From: a virus | Direction: 5' to 3' (one strand) | DNA: 46,984 nt | Virus genome (UHGV): UHGV-0142121 | Shown here: positions 213 to 26,694 of the stretch, piece after piece | Numbering within the stretch: position 1 is the first letter of the stretch | How the letters are laid out: each line of letters opens with the position of its first letter | Position numbers and translations under genes: made by a program | Notes under the pieces: model-generated | What the model was told of the DNA's origin: nothing | The model's database searches: none | Seen by the model: the letters and a program-made list of their open reading frames with translations, nothing else

Positions 213-2114
213 ATGGCGAAGCTAGGCGATGGCGGAATTGGTAAAATCATCTCTGATTTGGTGGCGGACGTTGACGCTATCGAAGCGTCCGACATCCCAC
301 AGGGAGATAAGACACGAAAATATAAGGCTGCGGCTACACGTGTTAAAAACGCGCTATTTTTAGATAAAAGGAAGTTCCGTGGTAACGGTTTGAAGAAACG
401 CATTACAGCCAATACCTATAACGCGTATATGACCCGTATTCGTAAACAGTTCGACGACCGTTTGCACCATCACTTCACCAGCAGCATTGAAAAGTTAGCG
501 GCAAAATACCCCGCCTACAGTGCTGAATTACAGGCGTGGCAATCTATGCCTGCGGCAAATATTCGTCAGGCATACGGCAATCTACAGGGCCAACTGAAGG
601 AAATTATGCCGCTGGCGGAGGTGCTTTCGGGTATGAAGTTCGGACCGGCTGCGGAGAAAAAATTGACGCGCCTGGCAAAAAAATACCCTGCCTGGAGCAT
701 CTATCTTAACGCGTTGACCAGCCAAGACTGGAAGTCGGTCGAAACCGAAATGCATGCCGCGTTCCAACAGGGAACCCGCTTGTTGGATGATCTGAATGGC
801 CTGAAAATCAACCATGAAATTCTGTATCACCTGCAGTTGAGTCCGGCAGAACGCTCATCGATACAGCAGCGCTGGGGCGAGGTGCTCAGCGAGAAGAAAC
901 GGTCAACTGTACTCTTGGACTACCCCAAATATATGCAGGCTGTGACCGAGCAGATCTACAAGGCGTTTGAACCATCACTTATCACGCAACGTAAGGATAT
1001 GGCGCCGCTGGCGTTCGCGCTAGCAGCCGTATCCGGGCGTCGATTGATTGAGGTGATGGTTCAGGGAGAATTTGAGGTTACCGGCAAGTATGAAGTTATT
1101 TTCTACGGGCAGGCCAAAAAACGAACCGGCGAGGATAAGGGGCGTAAAATTTATGTGCTGTGCGACCCGGCTCTGTTCGTTCAACGTTTAAATGAACTGA
1201 GAAGTTGCCCCGCAGCGGCTGATTTTGACGAAATCAGATCTCTGTTGAACGATGATAGCTACCGGGCCGCAAATGTGCGCATCGCATCAATTCTTGGTAA
1301 CACATTTAACCAGCACGCGAAGCTGTTCTTCGGCGACGACCGCCGAACATTCAAAGACACGCGCGCGATTTATGCGCGTATCACCTATGAGGCGTTTTTC
1401 CGCTACGACCCGCGCTGGAAAAACGTTGATGAGGACGTCTTTTTCTCTGAAATCCTGGGGCATGACGACGAAAATACGCAGCTGCACTACAAACAGTTCA
1501 AACTGCATAATTTCTCACGCAGCTGGCGCCCGGAAACGGGGATTGAAAATAAGCGCCTCGCTGCTCTACAAGCGCTTGACGACCAAATGCCTGGCTTCGC
1601 CAGGGGCGATGCCGGTATCCGTATTCATGAAACAACAAAGCGGCTGGTGGAGGAATCAGCTGATATCGTCATCAACACAAAAATATTACGAGATGCTGGA
1701 TTTAACCCGACGCTAGTTCGCCGGTACCTTGATTTTGTTGCTGAGGCGCTGGCTATGAGCAGTACGATTAACAATGCAGATGCGCCCTCTATTGTCATAA
1801 CCTCTGACGAACTGGATGATGAAGACGACCTCGCTGGCGATAGCGGTGCCGATAGAGAGGAAACCAGTGACGATACCCAGGCGCTGGAAGCTGAAGAGGA
1901 AGGCCGAGAAGATGGCGTGACCGCCGAGGCCGAAGAGGAAAAACCAGTACCAATAGACACTCGTCCACGCTTCTCCGCGCCCGTTCGTAGTGACGACGGC
2001 AGCTGGACGATCCGTTTCAAATACAAGGGGCAGCTATACGCCTGGAGTGGCGCGGCGGATAGTATCAGCAGTGCCATGAAATCAGCATGGTTTGCGTATT
2101 TCCCAGAAAATTAA
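213..2114 (+). CDS. telN: Protelomerase (telomere resolvase) TelN, 633 aa
   Basis: Long stretches match my recollection of N15 TelN (RKFRGNGLKKRITANTYNAYM, MAPLAFALAAVSGRR, FFGDDRRTFKDTRAIYARI, acidic C-terminal tail); GAGGGGGG ribosome-binding site; sits beside the telomere palindrome. Confidence 0.9.
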   Translation: MAKLGDGGIGKIISDLVADVDAIEASDIPQGDKTRKYKAAATRVKNALFLDKRKFRGNGLKKRITANTYNAYMTRIRKQFDDRLHHHFTSSIEKLAAKYPAYSAELQAWQSMPAANIRQAYGNLQGQLKEIMPLAEVLSGMKFGPAAEKKLTRLAKKYPAWSIYLNALTSQDWKSVETEMHAAFQQGTRLLDDLNGLKINHEILYHLQLSPAERSSIQQRWGEVLSEKKRSTVLLDYPKYMQAVTEQIYKAFEPSLITQRKDMAPLAFALAAVSGRRLIEVMVQGEFEVTGKYEVIFYGQAKKRTGEDKGRKIYVLCDPALFVQRLNELRSCPAAADFDEIRSLLNDDSYRAANVRIASILGNTFNQHAKLFFGDDRRTFKDTRAIYARITYEAFFRYDPRWKNVDEDVFFSEILGHDDENTQLHYKQFKLHNFSRSWRPETGIENKRLAALQALDDQMPGFARGDAGIRIHETTKRLVEESADIVINTKILRDAGFNPTLVRRYLDFVAEALAMSSTINNADAPSIVITSDELDDEDDLAGDSGADREETSDDTQALEAEEEGREDGVTAEAEEEKPVPIDTRPRFSAPVRSDDGSWTIRFKYKGQLYAWSGAADSISSAMKSAWFAYFPEN

Positions 2115-3386: not shown

Positions 3387-6300
3387 TTAAACCGCCTGCA
3401 ACCGCTTCAGTTCGTTGTATTGGCCATCTGATAGTTGCCACATATTGTCAGCCATAAACAGCCCGGCAACCGTCGCCTGTATCAACCGTGGCGGCATAGT
3501 CGCCAGTTGTGCCAGTTCTTCCGGCGTCAGTGCGGTTCTCAGCCATGCAAATGGCACCGGCATCGCAGCGATAGCCTCTTCAATCGTCGTCAGCGTTGCC
3601 TCAATAAATGCCGTCTCAGCAGATCCAGATTGGGATCTTACATCTATATTTGATCGGCAATCGAGATCCGGTTCTTCCGGTGCCCCCACATCCAGTTTCA
3701 TCTGGACAAACGACAGTGATGCCTCGGCGCGACGCGCCAGAATTCCGTGAATGAATTCCCAGGATTCGGGGACGATTGACCACACGTAACCGAGGCCCTG
3801 TGAACGCGGTAGGCGGCGTTTTTGAGTCGCGTAACCGAATGCCTCACAGATCTGTTTGAAAACCGTCTCGGGGCGTTTCTGGCGGCCTTTAGGGTTTATA
3901 TAGCCACCGAACCGCAGGACGTTGTTGAAACGGTCCGCGGTGGTTGGGTCCATAAGTTTGGCCATAGCTTCCGCCATACCTTCCTGGCTGGCTTCACCGG
4001 CGCCGGTATCTGGGTTAATACCGCAGGTGGAGAAATACTCCCTGGCGGCCTTACGGTGCAGCGATGCGTACGTACGCTGGGTTACTTCCATCACCGGGCG
4101 GCTTTGGACGGTGTAGCCGGTTATTCCTGGCTGCATGCGGTCGAACTGCGCATCAGCTGCTTCGCGGTTGAGCGCGGTGATCGTTACAAATTCGTTACGC
4201 GGCCCTTTGCGGAATTGGTAGGTGAACGTGAAAGCCTGCTGCTCACGGTCAATGCGTGCGGCGGTCATTTCATCCATCGTCATCAGTTCGGCCAGCGTCA
4301 GTTTCTTCTTCCCGCCATCGAGCAGGAATTTCAGAGATTCCGGGCTGACATCCAGCATCAACTCTTTTTCGATATCCCAGCGCGCCAGTTGCGCCTGCTC
4401 ATCTTCAGATAGTGATCGCTTGCCCATCAGTTCGTCGCGTTCGTCTTCGTCCGGGGTTTCCACTTCCATATGGCGCAGAACGGTCATATCCCAGACCCGC
4501 TCTTTCGATGCCTTACGCAGTTCTTTGCCGGTTTCGCTGGCCAGCGAGTCTTCGGCCAAGTGGCTGACGTTATAGCCATCGGCGTAGAGAATGCAGATCA
4601 GGTTGTTGGCGAAATCGTTTCTGGCCTGGGCCTCCATCGCGGCAACTTTAAATTTCATGCGGACATAGGTGGTGTCCGCCAGACCAAGGGAAAGGCGGTC
4701 GCCATCCAGGATGGCGTCGGTAAATTCTTCGTTTATCTCGGCGGTTTCCAGCAGTGCCTGCAGGAACCCACGGCGGATGTTGTCGGCGTTCTCTTCGCGT
4801 ACGCCAGGCAGCTTGTTCAGGCCGACCATAAATTCGGTGGCGGTCCTGTCGCGGCGCAGCATCTGAATGGCGTCGGACGGCACTACCTGGCCGCAGAAGC
4901 AGCCGAAATGGCGGGTGAAGTGCCGTTCTTCGATCGAGACGCCAGAACTGATAGCCGGGCTATAAATCAGGCCATCGTAGAGTTTAGCGCGCTGGTTCGG
5001 CGCGTCGGTAAACGCCACGACTTCCTGATCCGGCTTTGTGTCCTGGCTGACGTAAAGCCATTTCTTTTCTGGCCAGCGGTCGCGCAGCTGCAGCAGCAAC
5101 TGTTCGGCAAAATTGGTTGAGTCGGTGGCCAGCAGGAATTTTTCGCCAGCGGCCACAGCTTTCAATACTTCAACCATTATGCGGTCGGTATCGGTGTAAA
5201 GCACGCGGCGCGCTTCGCGCGTACCGTCGACTTTTTTGTACTTCACATCAACCGGCAGCTCGATGACGTGGATCTGTGTCCAGGTCGACAGGCCGGTTTG
5301 TTCGCGTCTGGCCAGCGCCAGTTCGCAGAGGTCTACCAGGATATCGCTGGCGTCCGCATCAACCAGCAGTGCGTGGTCATCGCTGTACGCGATGGAGTCG
5401 ATAAGGCGATTGAACACATCAACCGGGTGCGCCATCGCTTTACCGGAAAGCGTAGCGCGCAGGCCCTGGGTAGCTTCATCCAGGCCAAAGAAATCGTGCT
5501 TGCGCATCAGCGGTTGCCAGCAGCCCTTCACGATTGAATTGATACAGATCGTCAGCTTGCTGGCATACGGCGCCAGTTCCTGATAGCCGGGGTCCTGATA
5601 GTGCAGGATATCGCAATTCATGCGGCGGCCATCGTCGGCACGCGTCATCATGTCCCAGAGGCCACCGATTAGCGAAACGCGGTGCGCAACCGAAACGCCA
5701 CGCTGCGCGCTGTGCATCATAGGGCGCAGCAGGTGCTTGGATTTGCCCGACCCCATGCCGGCACGGACTATTACCGGGCCATTCAGCGCTTTGATGTAAT
5801 CCAGCACGTCTTTGGTCATGTGCGGTGTATCGAACCGCTTATAGGTGATATGATCGGGGCGTATTGCCGGGTTCGTTACGCGCTCGCTGAATGATCGGAA
5901 AGCCTGGGCCTTGTCGCATTTCTGTTTGAAGGCGCGTTTAACGCGGTTATACACGGTACCGTGCAGCGCTTTGTCGGCGCCGAGCTGGTCCAGCTTCATT
6001 TTTATCAGCGAGATCAGCTCCTGCGGGGATAACTTGGACGGGCATTGCATCATGCCGGCATCAATGCAGCGTACCAGCTGGCGTGAGAACGCGCGGCGAT
6101 CGGAAACCGGCGCAACGGCCAGAGACAGCATTTCAGCATCAAAGGAATTGCCTGGCAGCTGCAGGCGGTTCTGTTTTGAAAACAGCTGGCGGTTAGTTTC
6201 GGTGGCACCACGCGCCAGGTGGAGATCGTTGAAATCGCTTAATTCAGTTTCGCTGCTGTCGAAAATCGGGAATGTGCAACGGACCTGCGGGAATTTCTTC

Positions 6301-7376
6301 ATCACGTCGATGCCGACTCTTAACCCGGTATTGCCCTTTCCATTACGGGCCGACTTCTGGTCGTTATCCAGTGCGCACCAGATTTCCATGCCTGGGTACA
6401 GGCTGACCAGCTGATCAACAACCTTGATAACGTTATTTGCTGACACAGCCACGACAACAGCGTCGAAGCGCTTTTTGGCAACGGCAAACACACTGGCGCC
6501 AGTCGCGAAGCCTTCAACAACGCAGATCCTGGTTGCGCCGCGCAGCTGGCCAATGATGTGGCACGAACCAGCAAAGTCACCGGAATCAACAGCGCGGGTC
6601 TGCAGCTTGTCGTTTCTCTCGGTGATTCGCTGCCAGCCAACAATCGGGCCAACGCGAGATTCCCTGTCTTCCCGGCGGTCATCAATATGAGACAGCGGGA
6701 TAGCCATAACAGTTTGTTTTTTAACCGTTTTAGAATTGGGACCATGGTCCCACTGGGTTACGCGCCTGACGTTGCAGTATGAGAAAATGGAGCTGATACC
6801 TTTCTTCACCGCGTATGGCCATGAACCATCTTCTGCCGGTGCGTTGGCGAATGCGGTGGAGAACTGCAGGTATTCGTTCAGGTCAGCGTCGCGGCGCTGC
6901 GACTCCATAAACACAGAGATAGCCTGCTGGCGTTCACGTTCCTGGCGGCGTGCCTCAGCACGTTTACGCTGTTCCAGCTCGCGCGCGGACAGTGGGACCA
7001 CGGTCCCACCGTTCTGTTCTTTGTACCGGCGATATTCGGCTATAAGGAACTGGAAACCACTCCAGGAGCCAGCGTCAGAGCCTTTACATACGAAGTTAAC
7101 AAACGGGTACTTGATGCCTTCCTGCGAACACTCCATGCGGGAGTAGATCTCAACCTTACCTTTCAGCTTTGGCTCAGTAACGGCAGGACCATGATGGGCG
7201 TACTTTGTGAATTTTTCGGCGGCACCGCGAGAGGCAGAAAGTTGAATATCACTGGCGCATTTATGCCAGTCGATGCCGGCAGCGCTCGCAAGATCACTCA
7301 ATTCATTTGATGCCGCGTCAAGCAGCGAAAACGGGTCAGAGTTAAATTTGTGTTGAAAAAAATCCGTTAATTTCAT
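3387..7376 (-). CDS. repA: Replication protein RepA (primase-helicase), about 1329 aa from ATG at 7376; track ORF extends to a TTG at 7388
   Basis: Size and architecture match N15 RepA; Walker A GMGSGKSK; GGTGA ribosome-binding site before the 7376 ATG. Confidence 0.88.
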   Translation of the reverse strand: MKLTDFFQHKFNSDPFSLLDAASNELSDLASAAGIDWHKCASDIQLSASRGAAEKFTKYAHHGPAVTEPKLKGKVEIYSRMECSQEGIKYPFVNFVCKGSDAGSWSGFQFLIAEYRRYKEQNGGTVVPLSARELEQRKRAEARRQERERQQAISVFMESQRRDADLNEYLQFSTAFANAPAEDGSWPYAVKKGISSIFSYCNVRRVTQWDHGPNSKTVKKQTVMAIPLSHIDDRREDRESRVGPIVGWQRITERNDKLQTRAVDSGDFAGSCHIIGQLRGATRICVVEGFATGASVFAVAKKRFDAVVVAVSANNVIKVVDQLVSLYPGMEIWCALDNDQKSARNGKGNTGLRVGIDVMKKFPQVRCTFPIFDSSETELSDFNDLHLARGATETNRQLFSKQNRLQLPGNSFDAEMLSLAVAPVSDRRAFSRQLVRCIDAGMMQCPSKLSPQELISLIKMKLDQLGADKALHGTVYNRVKRAFKQKCDKAQAFRSFSERVTNPAIRPDHITYKRFDTPHMTKDVLDYIKALNGPVIVRAGMGSGKSKHLLRPMMHSAQRGVSVAHRVSLIGGLWDMMTRADDGRRMNCDILHYQDPGYQELAPYASKLTICINSIVKGCWQPLMRKHDFFGLDEATQGLRATLSGKAMAHPVDVFNRLIDSIAYSDDHALLVDADASDILVDLCELALARREQTGLSTWTQIHVIELPVDVKYKKVDGTREARRVLYTDTDRIMVEVLKAVAAGEKFLLATDSTNFAEQLLLQLRDRWPEKKWLYVSQDTKPDQEVVAFTDAPNQRAKLYDGLIYSPAISSGVSIEERHFTRHFGCFCGQVVPSDAIQMLRRDRTATEFMVGLNKLPGVREENADNIRRGFLQALLETAEINEEFTDAILDGDRLSLGLADTTYVRMKFKVAAMEAQARNDFANNLICILYADGYNVSHLAEDSLASETGKELRKASKERVWDMTVLRHMEVETPDEDERDELMGKRSLSEDEQAQLARWDIEKELMLDVSPESLKFLLDGGKKKLTLAELMTMDEMTAARIDREQQAFTFTYQFRKGPRNEFVTITALNREAADAQFDRMQPGITGYTVQSRPVMEVTQRTYASLHRKAAREYFSTCGINPDTGAGEASQEGMAEAMAKLMDPTTADRFNNVLRFGGYINPKGRQKRPETVFKQICEAFGYATQKRRLPRSQGLGYVWSIVPESWEFIHGILARRAEASLSFVQMKLDVGAPEEPDLDCRSNIDVRSQSGSAETAFIEATLTTIEEAIAAMPVPFAWLRTALTPEELAQLATMPPRLIQATVAGLFMADNMWQLSDGQYNELKRLQAV
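6736..6753. repeat. sopC-like palindrome TTGGGACCATGGTCCCAC inside repA coding sequence
   Basis: Near-perfect 18-bp inverted repeat matching the dispersed family; encodes TQWDHGPN in RepA. Confidence 0.7.
7002..7019. repeat. sopC-like palindrome GTGGGACCACGGTCCCAC inside repA coding sequence
   Basis: Core TGGGACCACGGTCCCA, identical to the F sopC inverted repeat as I recall it; encodes GGTVVPL in RepA. Confidence 0.7.
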
Positions 7377-7405
7377 TATTTCACCCAAAAAAAGACGCTG
7401 CGCAG

Positions 7406-7435
7406 TTGCGCAGTGCAGGTGAAACGAACTACAAT
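7406..7435 (+). promoter_or_regulatory. Candidate sigma70 promoter (TTGCGC, 18-nt spacer, TACAAT) pointing away from repA
   Basis: Hexamers read by eye; overlaps TGCGCAG direct repeats at 7399-7413. Confidence 0.3.
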
Positions 7436-7441
7436 CGACTC

Positions 7442-7558
7442 ACAGTTGTGTCTTTGATCAGCTTTGTTCATTAAAGTGAATGCCAATCACTGACTGAGTT
7501 GAATCTAGACCTGTTTCACCCGAAAAGCCCTGGACGCCACATCCGGGGCTTTTTATTT
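7442..7558 (+). ncRNA. Candidate small RNA of about 115 nt ending in an intrinsic terminator (7526-7558); no ORF
   Basis: Promoter-like element upstream; 8-bp stem AGCCCTGG/CCGGGGCT with 9-nt loop followed by TTTTATTT; lies in the repA-cB intergenic region with no plus-strand CDS. Confidence 0.3.
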
Positions 7559-7644
7559 GTCTGAATCCAGAGGTGGTTAAAAAGTGCTCAATCCGCACGC
7601 TACCTCTGGGGCAAGTACATCCTGGTCAGTTGCTATCACGCCAC

Positions 7645-7674
7645 ATAATAGCCTCTGACAAGTACGTTTGACAA
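7645..7674 (-). promoter_or_regulatory. Candidate leftward promoter (TTGTCA, 18 nt, TATTAT) that would give repA a leader of about 260 nt
   Basis: Hexamers read by eye on the minus strand just downstream of the cB stop. Confidence 0.3.
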
Positions 7675-7694
7675 ACCTTGGTTACTAAAATTTA

Positions 7695-8324
7695 CTATCT
7701 GGCCTTAACTGCTATAGATTTAGCCACGCAGATAACGGGATGAATCAAAATAATTTCGTCAAGATCGATTATCACGCGCTGAGATCTGTCGTTCGGCGCG
7801 TCGAGAAACACTTTGCCATCACGCTTCGACGCTAACATCCTAATAAACGGGTCATTACCTGATTTTGTGACAACGACCACATCTTCCCCGGTCACCGGCT
7901 CGCGGTTTGGGTCTGCGATCAGCACTTCACCGATATGATACGGCGCCGCGACGTCGTTATCGACCATCAGGCCATACAGGGCCGCATCCTGAACATTGAT
8001 ATCAACGTATTCCCGGCAGTTCTGCGCCAGGCCGCTATTAATCATTTCCAGGTTGGGGCCTGTCGCGGTTGAACCGATAACAGGGACTCCACGAAACACA
8101 TCGCCGCCGGCACCAGTTAAGATCCACTCAACAGGACGGCCCAGCTCGCGCGCCAGCTTGATAGCCAGATCTAACGCGGGCATAGCATCACTATTTTCCA
8201 GGTGTGAAAGTCCTGCCCCGGTAATACCGACGCGTTCAGCTACGGCTCTCACCGAGAACTTTGATTTATTTCGCTTCTTCAGCTCTTCACGGCGAGCCTT
8301 CAGCCAATCACCACGTTTTTCCAT
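7695..8324 (-). CDS. cB: Prophage repressor CB (CI-like), 209 aa: N-terminal HTH plus C-terminal LexA/S24-type domain
   Basis: HTH-like segment VRAVAERVGITGAGLSHLE; divergent from a cro-like gene; position matches the N15 immB region. Confidence 0.8.
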   Translation of the reverse strand: MEKRGDWLKARREELKKRNKSKFSVRAVAERVGITGAGLSHLENSDAMPALDLAIKLARELGRPVEWILTGAGGDVFRGVPVIGSTATGPNLEMINSGLAQNCREYVDINVQDAALYGLMVDNDVAAPYHIGEVLIADPNREPVTGEDVVVVTKSGNDPFIRMLASKRDGKVFLDAPNDRSQRVIIDLDEIILIHPVICVAKSIAVKAR

Positions 8325-8345
8325 AGAGAGATATTAAATCAAATC

Positions 8346-8363
8346 TGTATAGCTAGCTATACA
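8346..8363. promoter_or_regulatory. Operator: perfect 18-bp palindrome TGTATAGCTAGCTATACA; a half-site copy TGTATAGCT recurs at 8415
   Basis: Perfect inverted repeat 22 bp upstream of the cB start, inside the cB/cro divergent intergenic region. Confidence 0.6.
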
Positions 8364-8390
8364 CGGCTAAAGGGAATATTAGTGTAAATT

Positions 8391-8435
8391 TTGACAAGCG
8401 TACTAGACAAAACTTGTATAGCTTGGTTAGTATCA
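8391..8435 (+). promoter_or_regulatory. Putative rightward early promoter(s) for cro (TTGACA at 8391; -10-like TAGTAT at 8428)
   Basis: Consensus -35 hexamer; -10 candidates overlap the operator half-site; no Shine-Dalgarno before cro, suggesting a short or absent leader. Confidence 0.4.
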
Positions 8436-8439
8436 TTTC

Positions 8440-8628
8440 ATGAAAACGAAAGAAGCCATAGCCGCCTGCGGCGGCATAAACAAACTCTGCGAACTGCTCG
8501 GCTGTACTCGCGTTGCGATCTACAAATGGGGAGAGGAAGTCCCCGTGCTTCGACAGTACGAGCTGGAGATTAAAACAAATGGCCGACTCAAATCTGACTA
8601 CACACTGCATAAAGAAAAGGATGCCTAA
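8440..8628 (+). CDS. cro: Cro-like repressor, 62 aa
   Basis: Small HTH protein (ELLGCTRVAIYKWG) divergent from cB. Confidence 0.75.
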   Translation: MKTKEAIAACGGINKLCELLGCTRVAIYKWGEEVPVLRQYELEIKTNGRLKSDYTLHKEKDA

Positions 8629-8631
8629 CCC

Positions 8632-9273
8632 ATGGGACAGAATAAACGTCCATCGCGAGACACAATGTCATCAGTGGTTATACGGGCAACCTTACGGATG
8701 CTCGATGAAACCGGCGGCAGTGTCGCACAATTCTCTACAACGCGCTTGATTCCTGCTCTGGAAGTTCAGGGGCTTGTTGATATGGGGTCTGAAGGCATCA
8801 ATGTCACAGATTACATGCGCTGGCGTAGCCGTTGCATTAAGCGAGCACAGCGCGTCCTGGCTGGCGATACACCGATGCCTGCAGATTGGGTGTTAACGTG
8901 GTTGTCATGTCTTCCGGAAGAGTACCGTAACAAGTGCTCTCAGAAGCTGGCAGCGATGCAGGGCCTGCAATGGGTCCGCATGCCTAAGTACAACCGTATT
9001 CGTGTTGATTCAGTCGACGCTGAAATTGACGAGATTACTGTGAAATTCGGTGCCGTTCTCGCCAACTCAGCGCCAGCCCAGGATGGCGTATACGATGGCA
9101 GTGATGACCAGCACGCCCTGAAGCAGCTGCAGAACCGCCTGTATGAGTTGTCGTCATACCTCTATCGGGAAATCCTGAATATAGAAATGGCCACCGGCAT
9201 TAAACCGGACCACGTTGAACTTGGTGCGCTGAGTCCGCTGGGCCATCAAGCAGGGGGCAAATATGCAGTTTAA
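8632..9273 (+). CDS. Hypothetical early protein, 213 aa (possible regulator)
   Basis: First gene after cro in the same operon; no confident motif. Confidence 0.45.
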   Translation: MGQNKRPSRDTMSSVVIRATLRMLDETGGSVAQFSTTRLIPALEVQGLVDMGSEGINVTDYMRWRSRCIKRAQRVLAGDTPMPADWVLTWLSCLPEEYRNKCSQKLAAMQGLQWVRMPKYNRIRVDSVDAEIDEITVKFGAVLANSAPAQDGVYDGSDDQHALKQLQNRLYELSSYLYREILNIEMATGIKPDHVELGALSPLGHQAGGKYAV

Positions 9274-9928
9274 TTTTGTTCGCAACGAGCTTACTGCAGC
9301 GCTCTTGTCGTTCTCAAAATCTCACCGCAATCAGATCGTCGCGATGGCAGAACGTGCGCCACTGCAGAGCCGATTTACTGCAAAGCCGCAGCGTGAAATT
9401 GATATCGATAACGACACTGTCATTGTCATTGATGCCGAGCCAATCAGCTACAGAGAAGGCAAGCGTTACCATACGAGCATGATCCCGGTATCGCCAGCCA
9501 TTTTTAGCCAGGTGTCATGGCGTAGCGCGTTATTGAAAATGCCTGAGCCGTATAAATCCTGGTTGAATTACTGCTACGGCGATTCAATTTCATTTGAATA
9601 TCAAACAATACTGACAACACATATCTGGCATTCCCTGCTGATTAACCTGGCTGAAAGCAAATCGCCAAAAATGAACGGCAAGACTGAAAGCAACTTAAAA
9701 GCACTTGCCTGGTTGGCTCTACAGGAATCAAAAAATTTCATTAACCGCGGCGAGCTTAAATACAGCCAGGAAGAATTGAGCCAGCTATGTGGTGTGAAAT
9801 ATGACCTATGGCGGAAGAATTATAAAAATCGCTGGGATGTCATGTTGGCCTGCAGTGTTCAAATGGATCGGGAGGCGTTAATACATGTCGACCAATTACG
9901 GAAGAAGCATATCAGCAACAGGCGGTGA
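9263..9928 (+). CDS. Hypothetical early protein, 221 aa (antiterminator Q-like role possible by position only)
   Basis: AGGGGG ribosome-binding site; no confident motif. Confidence 0.45.
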   Translation: MQFNFVRNELTAALLSFSKSHRNQIVAMAERAPLQSRFTAKPQREIDIDNDTVIVIDAEPISYREGKRYHTSMIPVSPAIFSQVSWRSALLKMPEPYKSWLNYCYGDSISFEYQTILTTHIWHSLLINLAESKSPKMNGKTESNLKALAWLALQESKNFINRGELKYSQEELSQLCGVKYDLWRKNYKNRWDVMLACSVQMDREALIHVDQLRKKHISNRR

Positions 9929-10191: not shown

Positions 10192-10209
10192 TTGGGACCA
10201 TGGTCCCAA
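10192..10209. repeat. sopC-like palindrome TTGGGACCATGGTCCCAA (perfect)
   Basis: Perfect 18-bp palindrome in the 12-nt gap between two early genes. Confidence 0.75.
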
Positions 10210-16168: not shown

Positions 16169-16186
16169 TTGGGACCATGGTCCCAA
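16169..16186. repeat. sopC-like palindrome TTGGGACCATGGTCCCAA (perfect)
   Basis: Perfect 18-bp palindrome just upstream of the putative late promoter. Confidence 0.75.
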
Positions 16187-19333: not shown

Positions 19334-19644
19334 AAGTCTACATCGCTGGCCCCATGACAGGCCGTGAGAATTTCAACCGCGAGGCGTTCAACAAAGAAGC
19401 TGAGCGGCTGGCTAAACATGGACATATCGTACTGAACCCCGCCACATTGCCGGCAGGCATGGAGCCGCGCGAGTACATGGATATCTGTTTTGCGATGCTG
19501 CGCTGTGCGGATGCCATGTTGATGCTGCCAGGCTGGCAGGCGTCATCCGGCGCGACCGCTGAGTACCACTACGCGTACAAAATGGATCTGCCGGTCTACA
19601 GCACACTGCATTACCCACCGGTGGCCAGCGAACAGGCTGACTGA
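19330..19644 (+). CDS. DUF4406 / nucleoside 2-deoxyribosyltransferase-like protein, 104 aa
   Basis: N-terminus MKVYIAGPMTG...NPA fits the family signature as I recall it. Confidence 0.5.
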   Translation: MKVYIAGPMTGRENFNREAFNKEAERLAKHGHIVLNPATLPAGMEPREYMDICFAMLRCADAMLMLPGWQASSGATAEYHYAYKMDLPVYSTLHYPPVASEQAD

Positions 19645-19662
19645 TTGGGACCATGGTCCCAA
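19645..19662. repeat. sopC-like palindrome TTGGGACCATGGTCCCAA (perfect)
   Basis: Starts at the base after the upstream stop codon; followed by an intrinsic terminator. Confidence 0.75.
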
Positions 19663-19669
19663 TGAAATG

Positions 19670-19990: not shown

Positions 19991-20842
19991 ATGGCTGAGA
20001 AAATTATTGCCGATGTACTCGATACTGCTCTGGCTCGACATTACGAGCAACTTGGCGATGCAGAACGTGAAAAACAGGCGGTGGTCTTTATGGATGGTCG
20101 CTGGGTGGCCATCCGCGGGGATTTTACCCCTGATGAAATTCGTGAAGCTGTGGAATACATCCATCGCTACCGTGTATCGAAAAAGCTCCAGAAATCGCTG
20201 GAAGATATCTCACCATTTGTTGTTGATAACGGTGAGGTATTCATCAAGGACGCATTTATTTCGGAAACTATCCACGCGGCAGAAACGCTGAAGCCGAAGA
20301 ACAGTAATAGCAACATAGATGTAGGTAAGATTCTTGACGATGCATGGAAAAGTGGTCGCCCATGTATCGGGGAGGCTGTGAACAATCTGGCTCAGGTTAT
20401 AGCAAGTGCCCGAGTATCCTCTCAAATCTTTAAGCAACATACGAGCTGCGGTGAGATAACGCCATTAACCTATACAGCATCTATGAGCATTAACGTAAAC
20501 GATGCCCCGTCCGCATCTGGTGCCGATAGTAACATTGATGGCATTTCATTTGAGGTGAGCGATAAGGACATGGTTGTCAATCTGGCTGGCGGTGGGCGAA
20601 TCGTCATCAGTAATTGGGGTGATAGCAGCACCATGGTATCGAAAGCATTACCACCACTTGCACATACAGCATCATTGGGTCTTTCCTGCCACGATATTGC
20701 GAAAGAAACATTATCAGCAGTGCTCGCCGCTACTCTCCCCAACGTACCAAGGGGTCGAACCGAAGAAGCGGCTATTGCCCTGGCTCGTGCGGTACGATCT
20801 GCTTTCAACGCGCTGGGAAACGATAATGCCAGCCCGCGCTAA
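19991..20842 (+). CDS. Hypothetical protein, 283 aa
   Basis: Strong AGGAG ribosome-binding site; no recognisable motif. Confidence 0.5.
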   Translation: MAEKIIADVLDTALARHYEQLGDAEREKQAVVFMDGRWVAIRGDFTPDEIREAVEYIHRYRVSKKLQKSLEDISPFVVDNGEVFIKDAFISETIHAAETLKPKNSNSNIDVGKILDDAWKSGRPCIGEAVNNLAQVIASARVSSQIFKQHTSCGEITPLTYTASMSINVNDAPSASGADSNIDGISFEVSDKDMVVNLAGGGRIVISNWGDSSTMVSKALPPLAHTASLGLSCHDIAKETLSAVLAATLPNVPRGRTEEAAIALARAVRSAFNALGNDNASPR

Positions 20843-21188
20843 GCGCCCTTGTAAGCACAAAGGATGCTCTACCGCCACTAACGACCCATCAGGATATTGC
20901 GATAGCCATCGCCAGCAGCACGCCGGTGATGGCTGGCGTAATTACCAGCCAGGGAAGAGCCGACAGGATCGCGGGTATGGAAGACCATGGGAGATACGCC
21001 GCGCTCGCATTCTGATGCGGGATAAATATCTCTGCCAGGACTGCCGGCGCCGGGGCATAGGCATGAAAGCTGAAAGTGTGGATCACATCATCCCGAAAGC
21101 CCATGGCGGCACCGATGACGATAGCAACCTCGAATCGTTGTGCTGGCCATGCCACCGCCGGAAGACAGCTAAGGAACGATTTAACTGA
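20826..21188 (+). CDS. HNH endonuclease, 120 aa
   Basis: Cys-rich zinc pattern plus DHIIPKAHGGTDD..NL..LCWPCH; start moved to ATG 20826; packaging-associated HNH by position. Confidence 0.7.
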   Translation: MPARAKRPCKHKGCSTATNDPSGYCDSHRQQHAGDGWRNYQPGKSRQDRGYGRPWEIRRARILMRDKYLCQDCRRRGIGMKAESVDHIIPKAHGGTDDDSNLESLCWPCHRRKTAKERFN

Positions 21189-21388
21189 TGGCATACATCC
21201 GTTGTACTTACTGCGGCTCGCAGCTGCATACCGTAGCGAACTGCCCTAAAACGTGGGGCGGTTCATCCCGCCGTGCCAACTTGCGCTGCGGCTATTGTGG
21301 ACAGTCAGGACATAACTCTAATGCCTGCCCACACAATGCGAGCAGCGGTCGCCGTCGTCAGTTGAACGAAAACTTTTATCTGGACTAA
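21188..21388 (+). CDS. Small zinc-finger protein, 66 aa
   Basis: Cys pairs CTYCG, CPK, CGYCG and a terminal Cys-Pro-His; ATGA coupling. Confidence 0.4.
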   Translation: MAYIRCTYCGSQLHTVANCPKTWGGSSRRANLRCGYCGQSGHNSNACPHNASSGRRRQLNENFYLD

Positions 21389-21392
21389 TGAG

Positions 21393-21779
21393 GTGATCAT
21401 GCTGGATTTAAATCCTCCAACAACTCCTGAAGAAAGTGCGGAGCATGGGCGCTTATACGCTGCATATATTGAATCCCTTGCCAGGACAAAACATCTGGCT
21501 TGCCAGAGGCTGTCGCTCAACGATAAAGAATATCCAGAATGGTTTGTTCTTTGGTTAGACGATGAAATTGCGCGTATTCGTTTTAAGTTAGAGGCGTTGA
21601 AATCCTGGAATAGACGAACTAATCCCGAAACTGCTGCAAATAAGGTTAGAAATATGATTTGGCAGGTTGATTACATGATGCGCGTAGCGACAGGGAAAGT
21701 GTTGCCTTGTCCTGTTAACCCTGAGTCAAATACTAACTGGCTTAACTATATGTCTACTACCAATGCACAGCCTGAATGA
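21393..21779 (+). CDS. Hypothetical protein, 128 aa, AT-richer than flanks
   Basis: ORF between HNH and cos; no motif. Confidence 0.45.
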   Translation: MIMLDLNPPTTPEESAEHGRLYAAYIESLARTKHLACQRLSLNDKEYPEWFVLWLDDEIARIRFKLEALKSWNRRTNPETAANKVRNMIWQVDYMMRVATGKVLPCPVNPESNTNWLNYMSTTNAQPE

Positions 21780-21799
21780 CGACTTTACTCTCGACTGAA

Positions 21800-21990
21800 C
21801 CGGCACCACGATGGCGGCGGGGGGATTGATTTCATTATGAAATCATTCAATGTGAAATCACTTTCAATATCAATAATGAGAATCAATATCATTAGAAGGG
21901 GATAGGGGGGGGTAAAATCCCTAAACCCCCCCGCCGTTGAGGACTGCCGCTTCCAGTCGATTTTTACACGTGGGAAATAAGATCTTTTTT
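21800..21990. other. Putative cos packaging site region
   Basis: Non-coding stretch just upstream of terminase small subunit with GGCGGCGGGGGG (21813-21825), a G8...C7 symmetric element (21903-21932) and repeated (A/G)TGAAATCA motifs. Confidence 0.4.
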
Positions 21991-22042
21991 TTGGATGAAA
22001 TTACCGTAACAGAAAACGCAATTGATGCATGGAGGTGCGCAG

Positions 22043-22480
22043 ATGGCGATGGGTGTGCGATCTCCAGGCGGTGGCCGGAAACCGAATAATATCGGCACAC
22101 AAGTCAGTTCAGTAACACGCGCCGTTTCGCCGCCAGATGAATTGCTGGGTGATATGGCCATTGATGCCTGGAAACGAACCTGCCGGCTGATGATCGATCG
22201 TGGCAACTTCGAAATGGAAGACTGCTACTTGCTGATGGAGTACTGCAACACGGTGCAGCTGCTGTACGACGCTAATCAGGAAATCAAAGGAGACGGGATC
22301 GGTGATGCGACTGCTGCCGGCGGCCAGAAGCTGGGCGCCGCGGTGAAAGCGCGTGATAAGTACATTTCGCAGCTCATCAGGCTGAGCGTCGTTCTGAAAC
22401 TGGACCCGAACAGCCGGGTCAGAGTTGCTAATCCGGGGCAAGGTGGCAAAGAAGCGGGAAACGATTTCGACGATTTTTAA
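22043..22480 (+). CDS. Terminase small subunit, about 145 aa
   Basis: Position directly upstream of terminase large subunit; GGAGG before ATG 22043. Confidence 0.55.
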   Translation: MAMGVRSPGGGRKPNNIGTQVSSVTRAVSPPDELLGDMAIDAWKRTCRLMIDRGNFEMEDCYLLMEYCNTVQLLYDANQEIKGDGIGDATAAGGQKLGAAVKARDKYISQLIRLSVVLKLDPNSRVRVANPGQGGKEAGNDFDDF

Positions 22481-22498
22481 TTGGGACCACGGTCCCAT
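22481..22498. repeat. sopC-like palindrome TTGGGACCACGGTCCCAT at the terS/terL junction
   Basis: 16-mer TGGGACCACGGTCCCA starts at the base after the terS stop and precedes the terL ATG. Confidence 0.7.
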
Positions 22499-22507
22499 TT
22501 TTTATGG

Positions 22508-24229
22508 ATGAGTTATATGGCCGCATACCCGAACGTCAATCTGGCGAATCAGTATGCGCGTGATGTGCTCAGCGGCAGCATAGTCGCCTGTAAATACATC
22601 CGGCTGGCCTGCCAGCGCCATTTTGACGACCTGAAAAAATCACTGGATAAGGATTATCCGTACCGATTTGACCGGGATTTAGCTGAACGAGCATGTCGAT
22701 TTGTTCAGCTGCTACCCCACTCCAGTGGGGACCTCAAAGGGCAGAAACTGAAGCTGGAAATGTGGCAAGCCTTCGCTTTCTGCTCGATCTTCGGCTGGGT
22801 TACGAAATCCAACAAAAAACGACGCTTTAAGGAAGCCTACATCCGCGTTGCCCGTAAAAACGGTAAATCGTTTATCTCTGCGGGCATTGGTATGTATATG
22901 TTCTGCGCTGATGGCGAAAACAGCGCAGAAGTTTACTGTGGCGCCACGCAGATGAGGCAGGCCAAGAAGGTCTTCACCCCAGCCCAACAAATAGCAAAAA
23001 TGCTGCCGGCGCTGCGCCGGCGGTTTGATGTTTCAGTCTGGACCGAGAAGCTGACGCGTCCGGACGGCTCCATATTTGCGCCGGTGGTCGGCGACCCTGG
23101 TGATGGTGACTCACCCAGCTGCGCCATCATTGACGAATACCACGAGCACAAAACAGACCGTCTTTACCAGGCGATGACGACGGGCATGGGCGCCCGTTCT
23201 CAGCCGTTGACGCTGATTATTACCACTGCCGGTACTGACCTCGAATCACCTTGTTACGACAAGGACAAAGAGGTCAAAGAGGCGCTGGACGAAATCACCC
23301 CGAACGATCGACTGTTTGGCATGATTTACGAGCTGGATCAGGGGGACGACTGGACTGACCCGGCCAACCTGATTAAAGCCAACCCGAACCTCGATGTCTC
23401 GGTGAAATACAGCGATCTGGTCGAGCTGCTGGAAGTGGCAAAGAAAGTCCCGCGTATGACGAACGCGTTTAAGACAAAGCGTCTGAATATGTGGGTTTCC
23501 GGTGCCGCAGCGTTCTTCAATATGGAGCAGTGGAAAGAAGCCGAAGATAAGACGCTGAAGCTGTCGGACTTTACTGATGACGATGCCAATCTGGGGCTGG
23601 ATCTCGCGAAAAAGCTCGATATGAACGCCTGCATACCTTTATTCACGCGGGAAATTGAGGGCAAGAAGCACTACTACTCCGTGGCCCCCAAATTTTGGGT
23701 CCCGGAAGATACAGTTCACAGCACCGATCCTAAGCACCTTAAAGCTGCTGACCGGTACCGGAAATTCGTCACGATGAAGGTACTGGAGGCGACCGATGGC
23801 GCCGAGGCTGATTATCGTGAAATTCACGCCAGCATTCTGGATCTGCGGCAGGAAATCAGGATTAAAGAAGCGGATATCGACCCGGCAGGTGCCACGGCGT
23901 TGCGGCATCTGCTGGAGGATGACGGGGTTGAATGTGTGGAGATCACGCAGAACTTCCAGAACATGTCTCCGGCGATGAACGAACTGGAAGCGGCGCTCGC
24001 CGGCGGGCGATTCCACCACGACGGCAATCCGATTCTCACCTGGTGTATCAGCAACGTTATCGGGAAGTTAATTCCCGGCAGCGATGACGTCGTTCGCCCG
24101 ACAAAAGGCGATAAACAATCAAAAATCGACGGCGCGACAGCGTTGTTTAACGCCCTTACGCGCGCGCTGCAGAACGGCGGAGGCGGGGGCGGCAAATCCA
24201 TTTATGACGAGGAAGACGTGGCATGTTAA
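22508..24229 (+). CDS. Terminase large subunit, about 573 aa
   Basis: Size, position and ATPase/nuclease layout typical of phage TerL; start moved to first in-frame ATG 22508. Confidence 0.8.
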   Translation: MSYMAAYPNVNLANQYARDVLSGSIVACKYIRLACQRHFDDLKKSLDKDYPYRFDRDLAERACRFVQLLPHSSGDLKGQKLKLEMWQAFAFCSIFGWVTKSNKKRRFKEAYIRVARKNGKSFISAGIGMYMFCADGENSAEVYCGATQMRQAKKVFTPAQQIAKMLPALRRRFDVSVWTEKLTRPDGSIFAPVVGDPGDGDSPSCAIIDEYHEHKTDRLYQAMTTGMGARSQPLTLIITTAGTDLESPCYDKDKEVKEALDEITPNDRLFGMIYELDQGDDWTDPANLIKANPNLDVSVKYSDLVELLEVAKKVPRMTNAFKTKRLNMWVSGAAAFFNMEQWKEAEDKTLKLSDFTDDDANLGLDLAKKLDMNACIPLFTREIEGKKHYYSVAPKFWVPEDTVHSTDPKHLKAADRYRKFVTMKVLEATDGAEADYREIHASILDLRQEIRIKEADIDPAGATALRHLLEDDGVECVEITQNFQNMSPAMNELEAALAGGRFHHDGNPILTWCISNVIGKLIPGSDDVVRPTKGDKQSKIDGATALFNALTRALQNGGGGGGKSIYDEEDVAC

Positions 24230-24408
24230 CAGCAGCGATCTCGGTTCTGATTTTTCTGATTGGTCTGGCCGGCGCCGTCATGATCTCTGCCGGCGCATGG
24301 CTATTTTCTCCCGCAGCGGGACTAATCACCGGCGGCGTTCTCTGTGTTTTTTGCTCATGTATGTGGGCTAAATATCTGGGTCAGTCAGCTAACAAGGGGA
24401 GCAACTAA
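24223..24408 (+). CDS. Small membrane protein, 61 aa
   Basis: Two hydrophobic helices; overlaps terL stop and portal start. Confidence 0.35.
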   Translation: MLTAAISVLIFLIGLAGAVMISAGAWLFSPAAGLITGGVLCVFCSCMWAKYLGQSANKGSN

Positions 24409-25670
24409 TGTTTATCCCCCAATTTTTCCGGGGAGCATCAAAACCCGGAGTAAACCGAGGCGACTGGACCGTCCTTGGTGGGTTCGGTGCCAGCAGTAGC
24501 TCATCGGGCATCATTATCACGCCGGAAACGGCCATGGCCATGTCGGCGGTCCGGGCATGTGTGACGCTTCTGGCGGAGTCGGTGGCGCAGCTGCCGTGCG
24601 AACTGTATCGACGGGATGAAAAAGGCGGGCGTATTCGGGCGACCGATCACCCGCTCTATGACCTGATTCACTCCCAGCCCAACAAGAAAGACACCTCATT
24701 TGAGTACTACGAGCAGCAGCAGGGCGCGCTGGGGATTGAAGGTAACTCGTTTGCGCTGATTGAGCGTAACGGGAAAGGTGAGCCGACGGAACTGATTCCT
24801 GTGAACCCGAAAAAGGTCATTGTGATGAAAGGCCCGGACGCGATGCCTTATTACCATCTTCCCGATCTCGGCGAAACATTGCCGATGCGCATGGTGCATC
24901 ACGTTAAATATTTCTCGTTCGACGGTTATGTCGGTACGTCGCCAATCCAGACGAACGCGGATGTTCTCGGCCTCGGTCTGGCCGTCGAGCAGCACGCTGC
25001 CCAGGTGTTTGCACGCGGCACGACTATGAGCGGTGTTATTGAACGTCCGAAAGAGGCGGCGGCAATCAAGAGCCAGGAGGCGATTGATAAGCTGCTGGCC
25101 AAATGGACGGATCGGTATTCGGGCGTCCGTAATGCGTTTTCTGTCGCGCTGCTGCAGGAGGGGATGAGCTATAAGCAACTTTCCCAGGACAACGAGAAAG
25201 CGCAACTGCTGGAATCGCGTAAATGGTCGGTGAACGAAATCTGCCGGCTGTATAAAGTCCCGCCGCACATGATTCAGCTGCTGGAACAGTCCACGAACAA
25301 CAACATCGAGCACCAGGGCCTGCAATACGTGATGTACACGCTGCTGGCCTGGCTGAAGCGACATGAAAGCGCGATGATGCGCGATCTGCTACTGCCCAGC
25401 GAACGCCGGGATCTGTATATCGAGTTCAACGTTTCCTCGCTGCTGCGAGGGGACCAGAAATCGCGCTATGAATCGTACGCGCTGGGGCGCCAGTGGGGCT
25501 GGTTATCGGTTAATGATATCCGCCGCATGGAGAATCTGCCGCCTATTCCTGGTGGTGAAACCTATCTGACACCGCTGAATATGGTGGATAGCGCCAAGGT
25601 TATTCAGGGCGTCAGCAAAGCCTCAGCCTCACAGCTGAAAGAGATTGAAGCCATTCTGGCACGTACCTGA
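24408..25670 (+). CDS. Portal protein, 420 aa
   Basis: Size and position after terminase; GGGGAG ribosome-binding site. Confidence 0.75.
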   Translation: MFIPQFFRGASKPGVNRGDWTVLGGFGASSSSSGIIITPETAMAMSAVRACVTLLAESVAQLPCELYRRDEKGGRIRATDHPLYDLIHSQPNKKDTSFEYYEQQQGALGIEGNSFALIERNGKGEPTELIPVNPKKVIVMKGPDAMPYYHLPDLGETLPMRMVHHVKYFSFDGYVGTSPIQTNADVLGLGLAVEQHAAQVFARGTTMSGVIERPKEAAAIKSQEAIDKLLAKWTDRYSGVRNAFSVALLQEGMSYKQLSQDNEKAQLLESRKWSVNEICRLYKVPPHMIQLLEQSTNNNIEHQGLQYVMYTLLAWLKRHESAMMRDLLLPSERRDLYIEFNVSSLLRGDQKSRYESYALGRQWGWLSVNDIRRMENLPPIPGGETYLTPLNMVDSAKVIQGVSKASASQLKEIEAILART

Positions 25671-25710
25671 AACAAGTCCGCAGCCGCGGGCTTTTCTTTT
25701 GGTGGAAACC

Positions 25711-26622
25711 ATGAAACTAAAAATGATTAACCTGCCGCACCTTGCGGATCAGGTCTTCGGTGTTCCGCACTATGCAACGCGCCAGATTATGGACTCGGTG
25801 AAAGCCGTTCTGGTCCCGCGCCTGCAGGGGAATGGTTCTCCGGATTTGTCTATGGCGTTCGAAGCCGATGATGCCCCAGAGCCTGAGCAAACGCAGGCCG
25901 CAGGCGGCGTCGCAGTGATTCCCGTTCACGGCATCCTGGTGCCGCGACGCGGCCAGATTACGGCGGCCTGTACGGAGCTGACCAGCTACGAGCGAATCCG
26001 CGGCATGATTAGCGCCGCGCTGAGCGATGCGGCTGTCAGTGAAATCGTGCTGGATATTAACTCTGGTGGCGGAGCTGCAGTCGGCTGTAAAGAACTGGCC
26101 GATTACATTTTCCAGTCGCGTGACGTGAAGCCGATCACCGCTATCGTGAATTTCAGTGCCTACTCAGCGGCCTATTTTATCGCGTCGGCATGTAGCAAGG
26201 TTCTCGTCAGCCAGACCAGCGGTGTGGGGTCGATTGGCGTCATCATGGAGCACATGGAGGCGTCAAAGTGGGAAGAGAATATCGGTCTGAAGTTTACGAC
26301 GATTTTCCGCGGCGATAACAAGAACAATGGCTCGCAACATGAACCTCTGAGCGAGCAGGCCATGGCGATGTTTCAGGGCATGATCGACCAGATGTATGAG
26401 GTATTCACCAGTTCGGTTGCTGAATACCGCGGCATGGCGCAACAGGCGGTTATCGATACGCAGGCGGCGCTGTATACAGGTGCTGACGCGGTTGCTGCCG
26501 GGTTAGCTGATGAAGTTTCCGACCCACAATCGGCTATCAACGCGATTGCAGCAAAGTACCGAAAACCCCAGCAATCAATCCTGTTACGGGCCTCAGTCAT
26601 GGACATGCAGACCCAACTTTAA
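25711..26622 (+). CDS. Prohead protease, S49 (SppA-like) family, about 303 aa
   Basis: LDINSGGG and GVGSIGV motifs typical of S49 peptidases (lambda C-like); start moved to ATG 25711. Confidence 0.6.
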   Translation: MKLKMINLPHLADQVFGVPHYATRQIMDSVKAVLVPRLQGNGSPDLSMAFEADDAPEPEQTQAAGGVAVIPVHGILVPRRGQITAACTELTSYERIRGMISAALSDAAVSEIVLDINSGGGAAVGCKELADYIFQSRDVKPITAIVNFSAYSAAYFIASACSKVLVSQTSGVGSIGVIMEHMEASKWEENIGLKFTTIFRGDNKNNGSQHEPLSEQAMAMFQGMIDQMYEVFTSSVAEYRGMAQQAVIDTQAALYTGADAVAAGLADEVSDPQSAINAIAAKYRKPQQSILLRASVMDMQTQL

Positions 26623-26646
26623 CCCGACGCCTACGCGTCACCCTGA

Positions 26647-26671: not shown

Positions 26672-26694
26672 ATGTCTAAAAAGAGAGAAAAATC

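Follow-up and report, generated by a model that had tools for sequence, protein, structure and literature searches.

The 115-bp spacer between the divergent genes cB and cro of the prophage studied here holds a perfect palindrome, which raises the question of which repressor this palindrome serves and where on the DNA the other one acts. The window, by which we mean the whole stretch of DNA analysed (46,984 nucleotides, UHGV virus genome UHGV-0142121), is a complete linear-plasmid (telomere) prophage of the N15/PY54/phiKO2 group. This follows from the joint presence of a protelomerase, a RepA of 1333 aa, the block cB-cro-cII-like-Q and palindromic ends; both ends of the window are 54-bp perfect palindromes with the core TATACGCGCGTATA. 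The gene order is repA-cB-cro-cII-like-Q, and positions 7645–8440 form a PY54-like primary immunity region (immB), in which a CI-type helix-turn-helix repressor gene is divergent from a P22/N15-type cro followed by Q, all of this adjoining repA on a protelomerase replicon. The order cro-cII-like-Q is that of PY54 and P840. The first-pass annotation had recognized an immunity switch at this place, and the Pfam matches, the structure match of Cro and the gene order bear it out. A hairpin lies between cB and repA, and its counterpart in phiKO2 is annotated as a putative bidirectional terminator. The features discussed below are collected in Table 1.

Megablast of positions 7400–9300 against phages and plasmids revealed no close deposited relative: nothing was found among phages, and the sole match among plasmids was a partial Salmonella hit at 73%. 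Distant and protein searches were therefore used. The nearest deposited matches of immB are the Yersinia phages PY54 and P840, with 64–68% DNA identity, and the head genes are ~74% identical to those of phiKO2-like Klebsiella phages. The relatives in which the palindrome was compared comprise PY54, P840, plasmid prophages of Salmonella, Pantoea and Rouxiella, and viral and metagenome contigs, with CB proteins 37–99% identical to that of the window; a scan of genome contigs with the CB protein gave no confirmed relative. The putative functions named in this report are carried over from relatives that are 62–71% identical in protein sequence.

Table 1. Features of the immunity region and its surroundings (positions in the window)
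Feature	Position	Strand	Remarks
Protelomerase	213–2114		four TelK/ResT domains
Hairpin, bidirectional terminator-like, between cB and repA	7522–7554		kept in relatives
Predicted repA promoter	7645–7674	-	-35 TTGTCA 7674–7669, 18-nt spacer, -10 TATTAT 7650–7645; 10/12 match
Predicted OL, TGACAAG-TACG-TTTGACA	7656–7673		on repA promoter; 7/8 of the frame; predicted CB site for replication control
cB, prophage repressor, 209 aa	7695–8324	-	N-terminal HTH; Pfam HTH_3 and Phage_CI_repr
-10-like element of proximal cB promoter	8331–8338	-	TAATAT 8336–8331 or TTTAAT 8338–8333, ending 6 or 8 nt before cB ATG
OR3, perfect 18-bp palindrome TGTATAGCTAGCTATACA	8346–8363		predicted sole high-affinity Cro site; covers -35 position of proximal cB promoter
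Predicted OR2, TGACAAG-CGTA-CTAGACA	8392–8409		covers cro -35; predicted CB site
Predicted cro promoter	8404–8433	+	-35 TAGACA 8404–8409, 18-nt spacer, -10 TAGTAT 8428–8433; 9/12 match
Predicted OR1, TGTATAG-CTTG-GTTAGTA	8415–8432		covers cro spacer/-10; predicted CB site
cro, lytic repressor, 62 aa	8440–8628	+	Pfam P22_Cro 5.8e-18; N15 Cro structure 2HIN 4.5e-7
cII-like ORF (cro operon)	8632–9273	+	phrog_4834 2e-66
Antiterminator Q (cro operon)	9263–9928	+	Phage_antiter_Q 3.9e-42

That the palindrome at 8346–8363 is perfect over 18 bp was confirmed. The 22 bp given earlier as its distance from cB is correct when counted from start to start; 21 nt separate it from the A of the ATG (8324, minus strand), and its centre precedes the cB start codon by ~30 bp. 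Taken by itself, the palindrome is not significant by shuffling, as 33 of 200 shuffled versions of the window contained a perfect palindrome of at least 18 bp, and other long palindromes exist in the telomeres and partition sites of the window itself. It might thus be argued that the palindrome, which contains GCTAGC, is a product of chance or of the restriction-site type, with no regulatory role. What sets it beyond chance is its placement in the 115-bp divergent spacer together with its conservation there in every relative found: an OR3-type site lies 21–22 bp from cB, or slightly further in the Pantoea/Rouxiella-like group, and its cro-side (right) half, GCTATACA, is invariant in a 12-sequence alignment. 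In addition, the homologous site of PY54 is a proven Cro operator. The chance reading is effectively refuted by conservation, and we give it next to no weight.

Even when up to three mismatches are allowed, the palindrome occurs only once in the 46,984 bp of the window, and the genome thus has one OR3 copy, as does that of PY54. The earlier statement that no further copies of the operator occur upstream of repA or telN consequently holds for the sequence itself; it does not extend to a degenerate site of the same frame at 7656–7673, on the predicted repA promoter. Outside the window, a scan of genome contigs for GTATAGCTRGCTATAC returned at least 120 matches in unrelated taxa, which is about chance for a 16-mer in 596 Gb. 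Most viral-contig matches to the operator that had no cB/cro neighbour were treated as chance.

Homology assigns the palindrome to Cro. PY54 carries TGTATAGCTGGCTATACA at an equal distance from cI, and purified PY54 Cro binds this OR3 alone, genome-wide (Hammerl et al. 2015, PMC4488713). According to the same work, the inner 16 bp of PY54 OR3 are enough for Cro binding, binding is kept when the central G is changed to A (GCT-AGC, fully symmetric), half sites are not bound, and the outer G/C pairs set the specificity towards PY54 as opposed to N15 and phiKO2, which carry T/A (PMC4488713). The 16-bp core of the window palindrome, GTATAGCTAGCTATAC, is exactly the G-to-A variant of PY54; it conforms to the PY54-type core GTATAGCT(G/A)GCTATAC, located ~22 bp upstream of the repressor gene and flanked by the peripheral G and C, and its counterpart in phiKO2 is TTATAGCTGGCTATAA. 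The Cro proteins of the window and of PY54 share 71% identity and differ little in helix 3 (TRVAIYKW in the window, SRDAIYKW in PY54); no in-frame start was found upstream of the window cro ATG. In phiKO2, too, Cro is confined to OR3, while the targets of CB are OR1-3 and two OL sites (Hammerl et al. 2016, PMC4997575). The palindrome is therefore, with little room for doubt if function follows homology, the Cro operator OR3, homologous to that of PY54.

The first-pass annotation had treated the palindrome as the one operator of the switch. As an operator it stands, being the homologue of PY54 OR3 with a core equal to a bound PY54 variant; as the one operator of CB it is probably an incomplete account. 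For PY54 CI, strong binding has been described over the cro promoter and weak binding at OR3 (authors' unpublished data in the discussion of PMC4488713), and by analogy the palindrome is probably not the main CB operator in the window either. That CB binds elsewhere, which the annotation had named as a finding that would count against its view, is likely to be true in part. The sites of the PY54-group prophage repressor were stated to be unknown in 2015, 2016 and 2023 (PMC4488713, PMC4997575, PMC10612081).

A promoter scan found TAGACA-18-TAGTAT as the only rightward sigma-70-like promoter in the spacer. The -10-like element seen earlier just before cro is this TAGTAT, which ends 6 nt before the ATG at 8440, and its A2, A5 and T6 are invariant in the alignment. 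The geometry equals that of PY54, TGGACA-18-CATAAT-6 nt-ATG. In PY54 the cro -10, CATAAT at 6 nt from the ATG, was defined by spontaneous mutations, and RACE showed the cI and cro mRNAs to be single species, each with its 5' end at the AUG (PMC4488713). The claim that cro has no Shine-Dalgarno sequence proved correct: the 20 nt before its ATG pair with the anti-SD at no better than -2.2 kcal/mol, with a background median of -2.7, whereas five of seven other window genes sampled reach -5.3 to -9.4; the two weak exceptions are the start at 11579 (-0.9) and a doubtful TTG at 7388 (+0.5). In the relatives, a -10-like hexamer precedes the cro ATG by 6–7 nt in 13/13 scored, and anti-SD pairing is ~0 to -2.4 kcal/mol at both cro and cB, the Rouxiella cB (-6.1) excepted. 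With no Shine-Dalgarno sequence and a -10 element placed for a start at the A of the AUG, the cro mRNA is in all likelihood leaderless and begins at 8440 (+/-1). The suggestion of a leaderless cro thus gains support from homology, through PY54 RACE and the geometry kept in all relatives scored.

Alternatively, cro may have a short leader of ~10–15 nt that lacks a Shine-Dalgarno sequence, if transcription were driven by TTGACA (8391–8396), a perfect -35 hexamer, with a poor -10 near 8414–8422. The -10 candidates there are unconvincing: TTGTAT matches at 3/6 positions and lacks A2, and TATAGC would require a 20-nt spacer. This promoter did not emerge from the scan, its TTGACA is not conserved in the relatives, in contrast to the TAGACA/-10 pair, and the cro start of PY54 was mapped to the AUG. 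We consider the short leader improbable. As a cro promoter, TTGACA was rejected for its lack of a usable -10 and of conservation.

The transcript of cB is probably leaderless or near-leaderless as well. For both genes this rests on the conserved geometry and PY54 RACE. Of the two -10-like hexamers before cB, TTTAAT is the best-scoring alternative. A hexamer matching at 5/6 positions lies 7–8 nt before the cB ATG in 12/13 relatives, phiKO2 having only 3/6, and 12/13 also lack a Shine-Dalgarno sequence at cB, Rouxiella (-6.1 kcal/mol) being the exception. A PY54 fragment with OR3 and the proximal -10 was, however, almost devoid of promoter activity, and a strong cI promoter was mapped inside cro (PMC4488713). 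The origin of the leaderless cI/cB transcript is therefore uncertain, that of the window cB included. The protein itself is 62% identical to PY54 CI, and its C-terminal half gave no Pfam match to the S24 peptidase (autocleavage) domain even at E <= 1.

The second element noted earlier, a half-site copy overlapping the cro -10, exists in a slightly different position. The half-site TGTATAGC repeats exactly at 8415–8422, and identity runs over 9 nt (TGTATAGCT, 8415–8423); the copy thus falls within the promoter spacer and stops 4 nt short of the -10, and only the 18-bp frame 8415–8432 overlaps that hexamer. The other exact copies of the 8-mer, at 10138 and 33526, are in coding DNA and look like chance, ~1.4 being expected. 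Comparison of about 19 relatives revealed a frame, TG-N3-AG-N4-CT-N3-CA, that is common to OR3, the 18-mers at the cro promoter and a site past the cB stop; it was found by inspection, after looking at the sequences. Exact matches to it (TGNNNAGNNNNCTNNNCA) number only two in the window, OR3 and 8392–8409, both of them inside the 115-bp spacer, with 0.56 expected.

The candidate site at the cro -35, predicted OR2, scores 5–8/8 at the homologous position in relatives, has the same left half as OL, and includes G8393 and A8397, which are invariant or nearly so in the alignment. The left half of OR2 might instead be A/T-rich DNA resembling an UP element, a suggestion of the PY54 authors. Among its kind, predicted OR1 of the window is the weakest (6/8): its left half is perfect and of the OR3 type, its right half, on the -10, poor and degenerate. 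Good palindromes occupy this position in relatives, for example TGATAAGCTGACTTATCA in L003, L007 and L163, and the two spacer positions G8416 and G8421 show little or no variation. An alternative register of the cro-proximal site, 8424–8441 (TGGTTAG...), reaches 5/8 and is not claimed. The right halves of OR2 and OR1 coincide with the -35 and -10 hexamers, and part of their conservation could be that of the promoter.

Counted from the cro ATG, frame scores of at least 6/8 recur in the relatives near -94, -48 and -25/-26; counted from the cB stop, they do so at -34 to -41. The background probability of 7/8 or better is 0.00045 per position. Loci retrieved once the frame and the positions had been fixed were scored separately and behave alike: 7, 7, 8, 8, 7, 6 and 7 at the -48 site, 8, 6, 6, 5, 7, 8 and 5 at the -25 site, and 8, 7, 7, 7, 7 and 7 at OL.

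Three candidate sites in the cB-cro spacer, 46 and 23 bp apart, together with the gene arrangement, bring to mind a classical lambda-type switch, in which CB and Cro would share all three operators with opposite orders of affinity and Cro would repress its own promoter late; in the window, the -25 site repeats the OR3 half-site perfectly in its left half, which would fit as well. Yet the Cro proteins of PY54 and phiKO2 bind OR3 only, and half sites are not bound. Moreover, OR3 is nearly invariant and the other sites are phage-specific, which indicates two recognition classes. A lambda-type arrangement is accordingly very unlikely.

The site past the cB stop, predicted OL, lies on what is the best leftward promoter of its region. 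The -10 of this predicted repA promoter is within the block ACGCCACATAATA, present in the window and in nine Yersinia/Salmonella-type relatives; Pantoea and Rouxiella have TATCAT at that position. OL is a direct repeat of 8392–8416, within the similarity between the cro promoter region and 7656–7693, and its homologous position scores 6–8/8 in all 17 relatives where it could be evaluated. A second OL is not claimed for the window, where the best candidate reaches 5/8 (7679–7696). In phiKO2, two OL-type 16-mers identified by pattern match lie 15–53 nt past the cB stop and 23 nt apart, which agrees with the position of OL in the window and with the 23-nt spacing of 8392/8415, as far as a positional comparison with phiKO2 OL1/OL2 based on pattern matching goes.

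The half-sites of OL co-vary with those of the cro promoter. They are closer to the cro-proximal half-sites of their own phage than to those of other phages, with p = 0.0001–0.0006 by permutation among 11 phages and p = 5e-5 with 17 phages, values that overstate independence, since the relatives represent perhaps 6–7 clades. The same comparison among 11 phages showed no preference of OL for the OR3 of its own phage. Individual cases illustrate the pattern: the window has TGACAAG at both OL and the cro-proximal locus, L006 has TGATAAG at both, L163 CTTATCA at both, and L160 the odd, frame-breaking half TGATCTG at both, and in L155 TGTTTA(C/G/T) appears in six half-sites. In L158, which is near-identical to the window, OL differs in the central N4 only and the -48 site at a non-frame base only. 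Helix 3 of CB falls into groups that follow the half-site types, and helix 3 of Cro is conserved like OR3, in a correlation that is confounded with phylogeny.

An alternative explanation would retain OR3 as the sole sequence-specific operator, with CB recognizing something else over the cro promoter. What is conserved in the frame would then be promoter hexamers and an UP-like element, together with the trace of a promoter module that was duplicated long ago between the cro and repA regions. Indeed, an in silico search of PY54 found one site, and the CI targets were described as having 'only marginal sequence similarity' (PMC4488713). The right halves of the predicted sites are promoter hexamers, the similarity between 8392–8438 and 7656–7693 can be read as a plain direct repeat, and OR1 of the window scores only 6/8. 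Sigma-70 promoters, however, have no sequence requirement in the spacer or upstream of the -35, and it is in just these places that the invariant G and A columns stand. The frame of OL stays at 7–8/8 while the intervening bases change between clades, and a given phage shows identical deviations at OL and at its cro-proximal site. Finally, phiKO2 and N15 have experimentally verified sites at equivalent places. We regard a single operator as unlikely, though less so than the lambda-type switch.

On balance, the sequence comparisons thus tilt towards the three frame sites at 8392–8409, 8415–8432 and 7656–7673 being CB sites. With slightly less assurance, it may be proposed that the switch of PY54-type phages is not a single-operator one but comprises four or five sites in an N15-like set. 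By a similarly narrow preference, this set would obey a two-class code: a near-invariant OR3 for Cro, and phage-specific CB sites, two at the cro promoter and one or two at the repA promoter.

The reading that we favour, with a probability of roughly 0.8, combines an OR3-based Cro switch, a leaderless cro and CB at the three frame sites. In this model, CB at 8392–8409 and 8415–8432 would repress cro-cII-like-Q, and CB at 7656–7673 would repress repA and so limit the copy number; repressor control of repA or of copy number has been shown in N15 and phiKO2 (PMC4997575). CB may in addition bind OR3 weakly, which would provide a low-affinity autoregulation of cB. Cro, made from a strong leaderless promoter, would bind OR3 and thereby shut off cB. 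It would probably do so with no self-repression, since OR3 ends 41 bp before the cro -35; shut-off of the repressor gene by a Cro that does not repress itself has been shown in PY54 and phiKO2 (PMC4488713, PMC4997575).

A single OR3 and leaderless repressor transcripts have already been demonstrated for PY54, of which the window is a further, diverged example; only the prediction of CB sites adds to published work. The window and about 18–19 relatives offer enough variation to predict the sites of the PY54-group repressor, and the predicted site at the repA promoter links immunity to replication control. If the prediction is true, it would answer where the prophage repressor of the PY54 group binds, and the CB sites would be the seat of both immunity specificity and copy-number control. 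The Cro site hardly varies among phages whose CB sites differ, which suggests cross-talk among heteroimmune telomere prophages, in that Cro from one of them could turn off the cB of another.

Among known systems, the window most resembles PY54 and P840. It has in common with them the divergent repressor and cro genes with a spacer of 115–116 bp, a single copy of an 18-bp OR3 at 21–22 bp from the repressor gene with G/C peripheral pairs, the geometry -35, 18 nt, -10, 6 nt, ATG at cro, and a cII-like ORF between cro and Q. It differs in the sequences of CB (62% identical) and Cro (71%), and in the perfect symmetry of its OR3, which has A instead of G at the centre. The window also has, next to cro, a perfect copy of the OR3 half-site and a TGACAAG-type site, both of which PY54 lacks, and its head genes are phiKO2-like, unlike those of PY54.

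The predicted layout is that of N15 and phiKO2 (PMC4997575): OR3 by cB, two sites at the cro promoter, one or more past the cB stop, and 23 nt between adjacent sites. Cro is restricted to OR3 in those phages, and their CB, like that of the window, has no S24 autocleavage signature. Their spacer is shorter, however (80–81 bp, compared with 115 bp), CB is ~38% identical between them and the window, and their operators follow T-A-(N)10-T-A with T/A peripheral pairs, whereas the predicted CB sites of the window follow TG-N3-AG-N4-CT-N3-CA. The T-A-(N)10-T-A pattern (TA at 2–3 and 14–15 of 16 bp) is kept in OR3 and absent from 8393–8408 (GACAAGCGTACTAGAC) and 7657–7672. The predicted CB sites of the window are thus outside the N15/phiKO2 operator family, despite the similar layout.

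With phage lambda, the window shares divergent repressor and cro genes, a (here predicted) Cro-bound operator over the repressor promoter and probably a leaderless repressor mRNA, which in lambda is the cI transcript from PRM. Lambda cro, in contrast, has a leader and a Shine-Dalgarno sequence, whereas the window cro lacks the latter and is probably leaderless, and lambda Cro is of the alpha+beta fold, whereas that of the window is of the all-alpha P22/N15 type. In lambda, each of the three OR sites is bound by CI as well as by Cro, and Cro is autorepressing; in the window, only one of the three frame-matching sites in the spacer is OR3-like, and the two Cro homologues tested, those of PY54 and phiKO2, bind OR3 only.

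Across the 12 phages of the cB–cro alignment, the two halves of OR3, the palindromic predicted Cro operator (8346-8363), differ in how they evolve. The half facing cro, the lytic repressor gene, is unchanged in all 12 (GCTATACA), whereas the half facing cB, the prophage repressor gene, occurs as TGTATAGC, TGTACAGC, TGTAAAGC, TGTGAAGC or GGTTAAGC. Within the window, the flanks upstream of the left half of OR3 and of the second half-site (8332-8354 and 8401-8423) are 74% alike over 23 nt, although the match is weak outside their common 9-mer. This likeness suggests a local duplication in the window's lineage.

One of the relatives, L158 (OKVX01000478.1, a 20.9-kb metagenome contig), comes from a public metagenome and represents a near-identical phage: its CB is 99% identical to that of the window, and the spacers differ at two bases. 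It also supplies substitution data for positions outside the frame shared by the predicted CB sites. Comparison of the loci also bears on the repressor start in PY54 (NC_005069), where the RefSeq start of cI lies 12 nt upstream of the one conserved in all relatives (3694 versus 3706). The conserved start agrees with the 116-bp spacer and the leaderless transcript given by the PY54 authors; the extra in-frame ATG is also found in several relatives.

Features of the window and their coordinates
Feature	Coordinates	Remarks
Perfect 54-bp palindromes	1-54; 46931-46984	Core CACATTATTAAATATACGCGCGTATATTTAATAATGTG common to both ends
Protelomerase gene	213-2114	Adjoins left end
TGGGACCATGGTCCCA palindrome, 16-20 bp	6737-6752; 10192-10209; 16169-16186; 19644-19663	Four scattered copies
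Hairpin, bidirectional terminator-like	7522-7554	Between predicted repA promoter (about 7645-7674) and repA start (7388)
ORF, 213 aa	8632-9273	phrog_4834, 'CII-like'; between cro and Q

The hairpin upstream of repA is conserved among relatives. Given its position, repA transcripts would need read-through; it is also a possible end point for a rightward antisense transcript. The mechanically called RepA ORF (3387-7388) begins with a TTG that has no SD-like sequence, and translation may really begin at an ATG four codons further on (MKLTDFF...).

The terminal palindromes resemble telL and telR, the hairpin telomeres of a linear plasmid prophage, with each sequence continuing past the turn of its hairpin, and for this reason the window is probably the entire replicon. 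Among the TGGGACCATGGTCCCA copies, one lies within repA and another after Q, the antiterminator gene. Since the phiKO2 record carries the annotation 'putative plasmid partitioning site' at the two equivalent places, these palindromes probably serve as centromere sites of the sopC-like kind.

The replicon is mosaic in composition. Its head genes (20000-28000) share about 74% identity with those of phiKO2-like Klebsiella phages; its immunity region (7400-9300), in contrast, is of the PY54-like kind and lacks the operator type of phiKO2. The 'CII-like' ORF corresponds to PY54 ORF42 and to P840 ORF40; of these two proteins, that of P840 is active as a prophage repressor, and that of PY54, which is longer, is inactive (PMC10612081).
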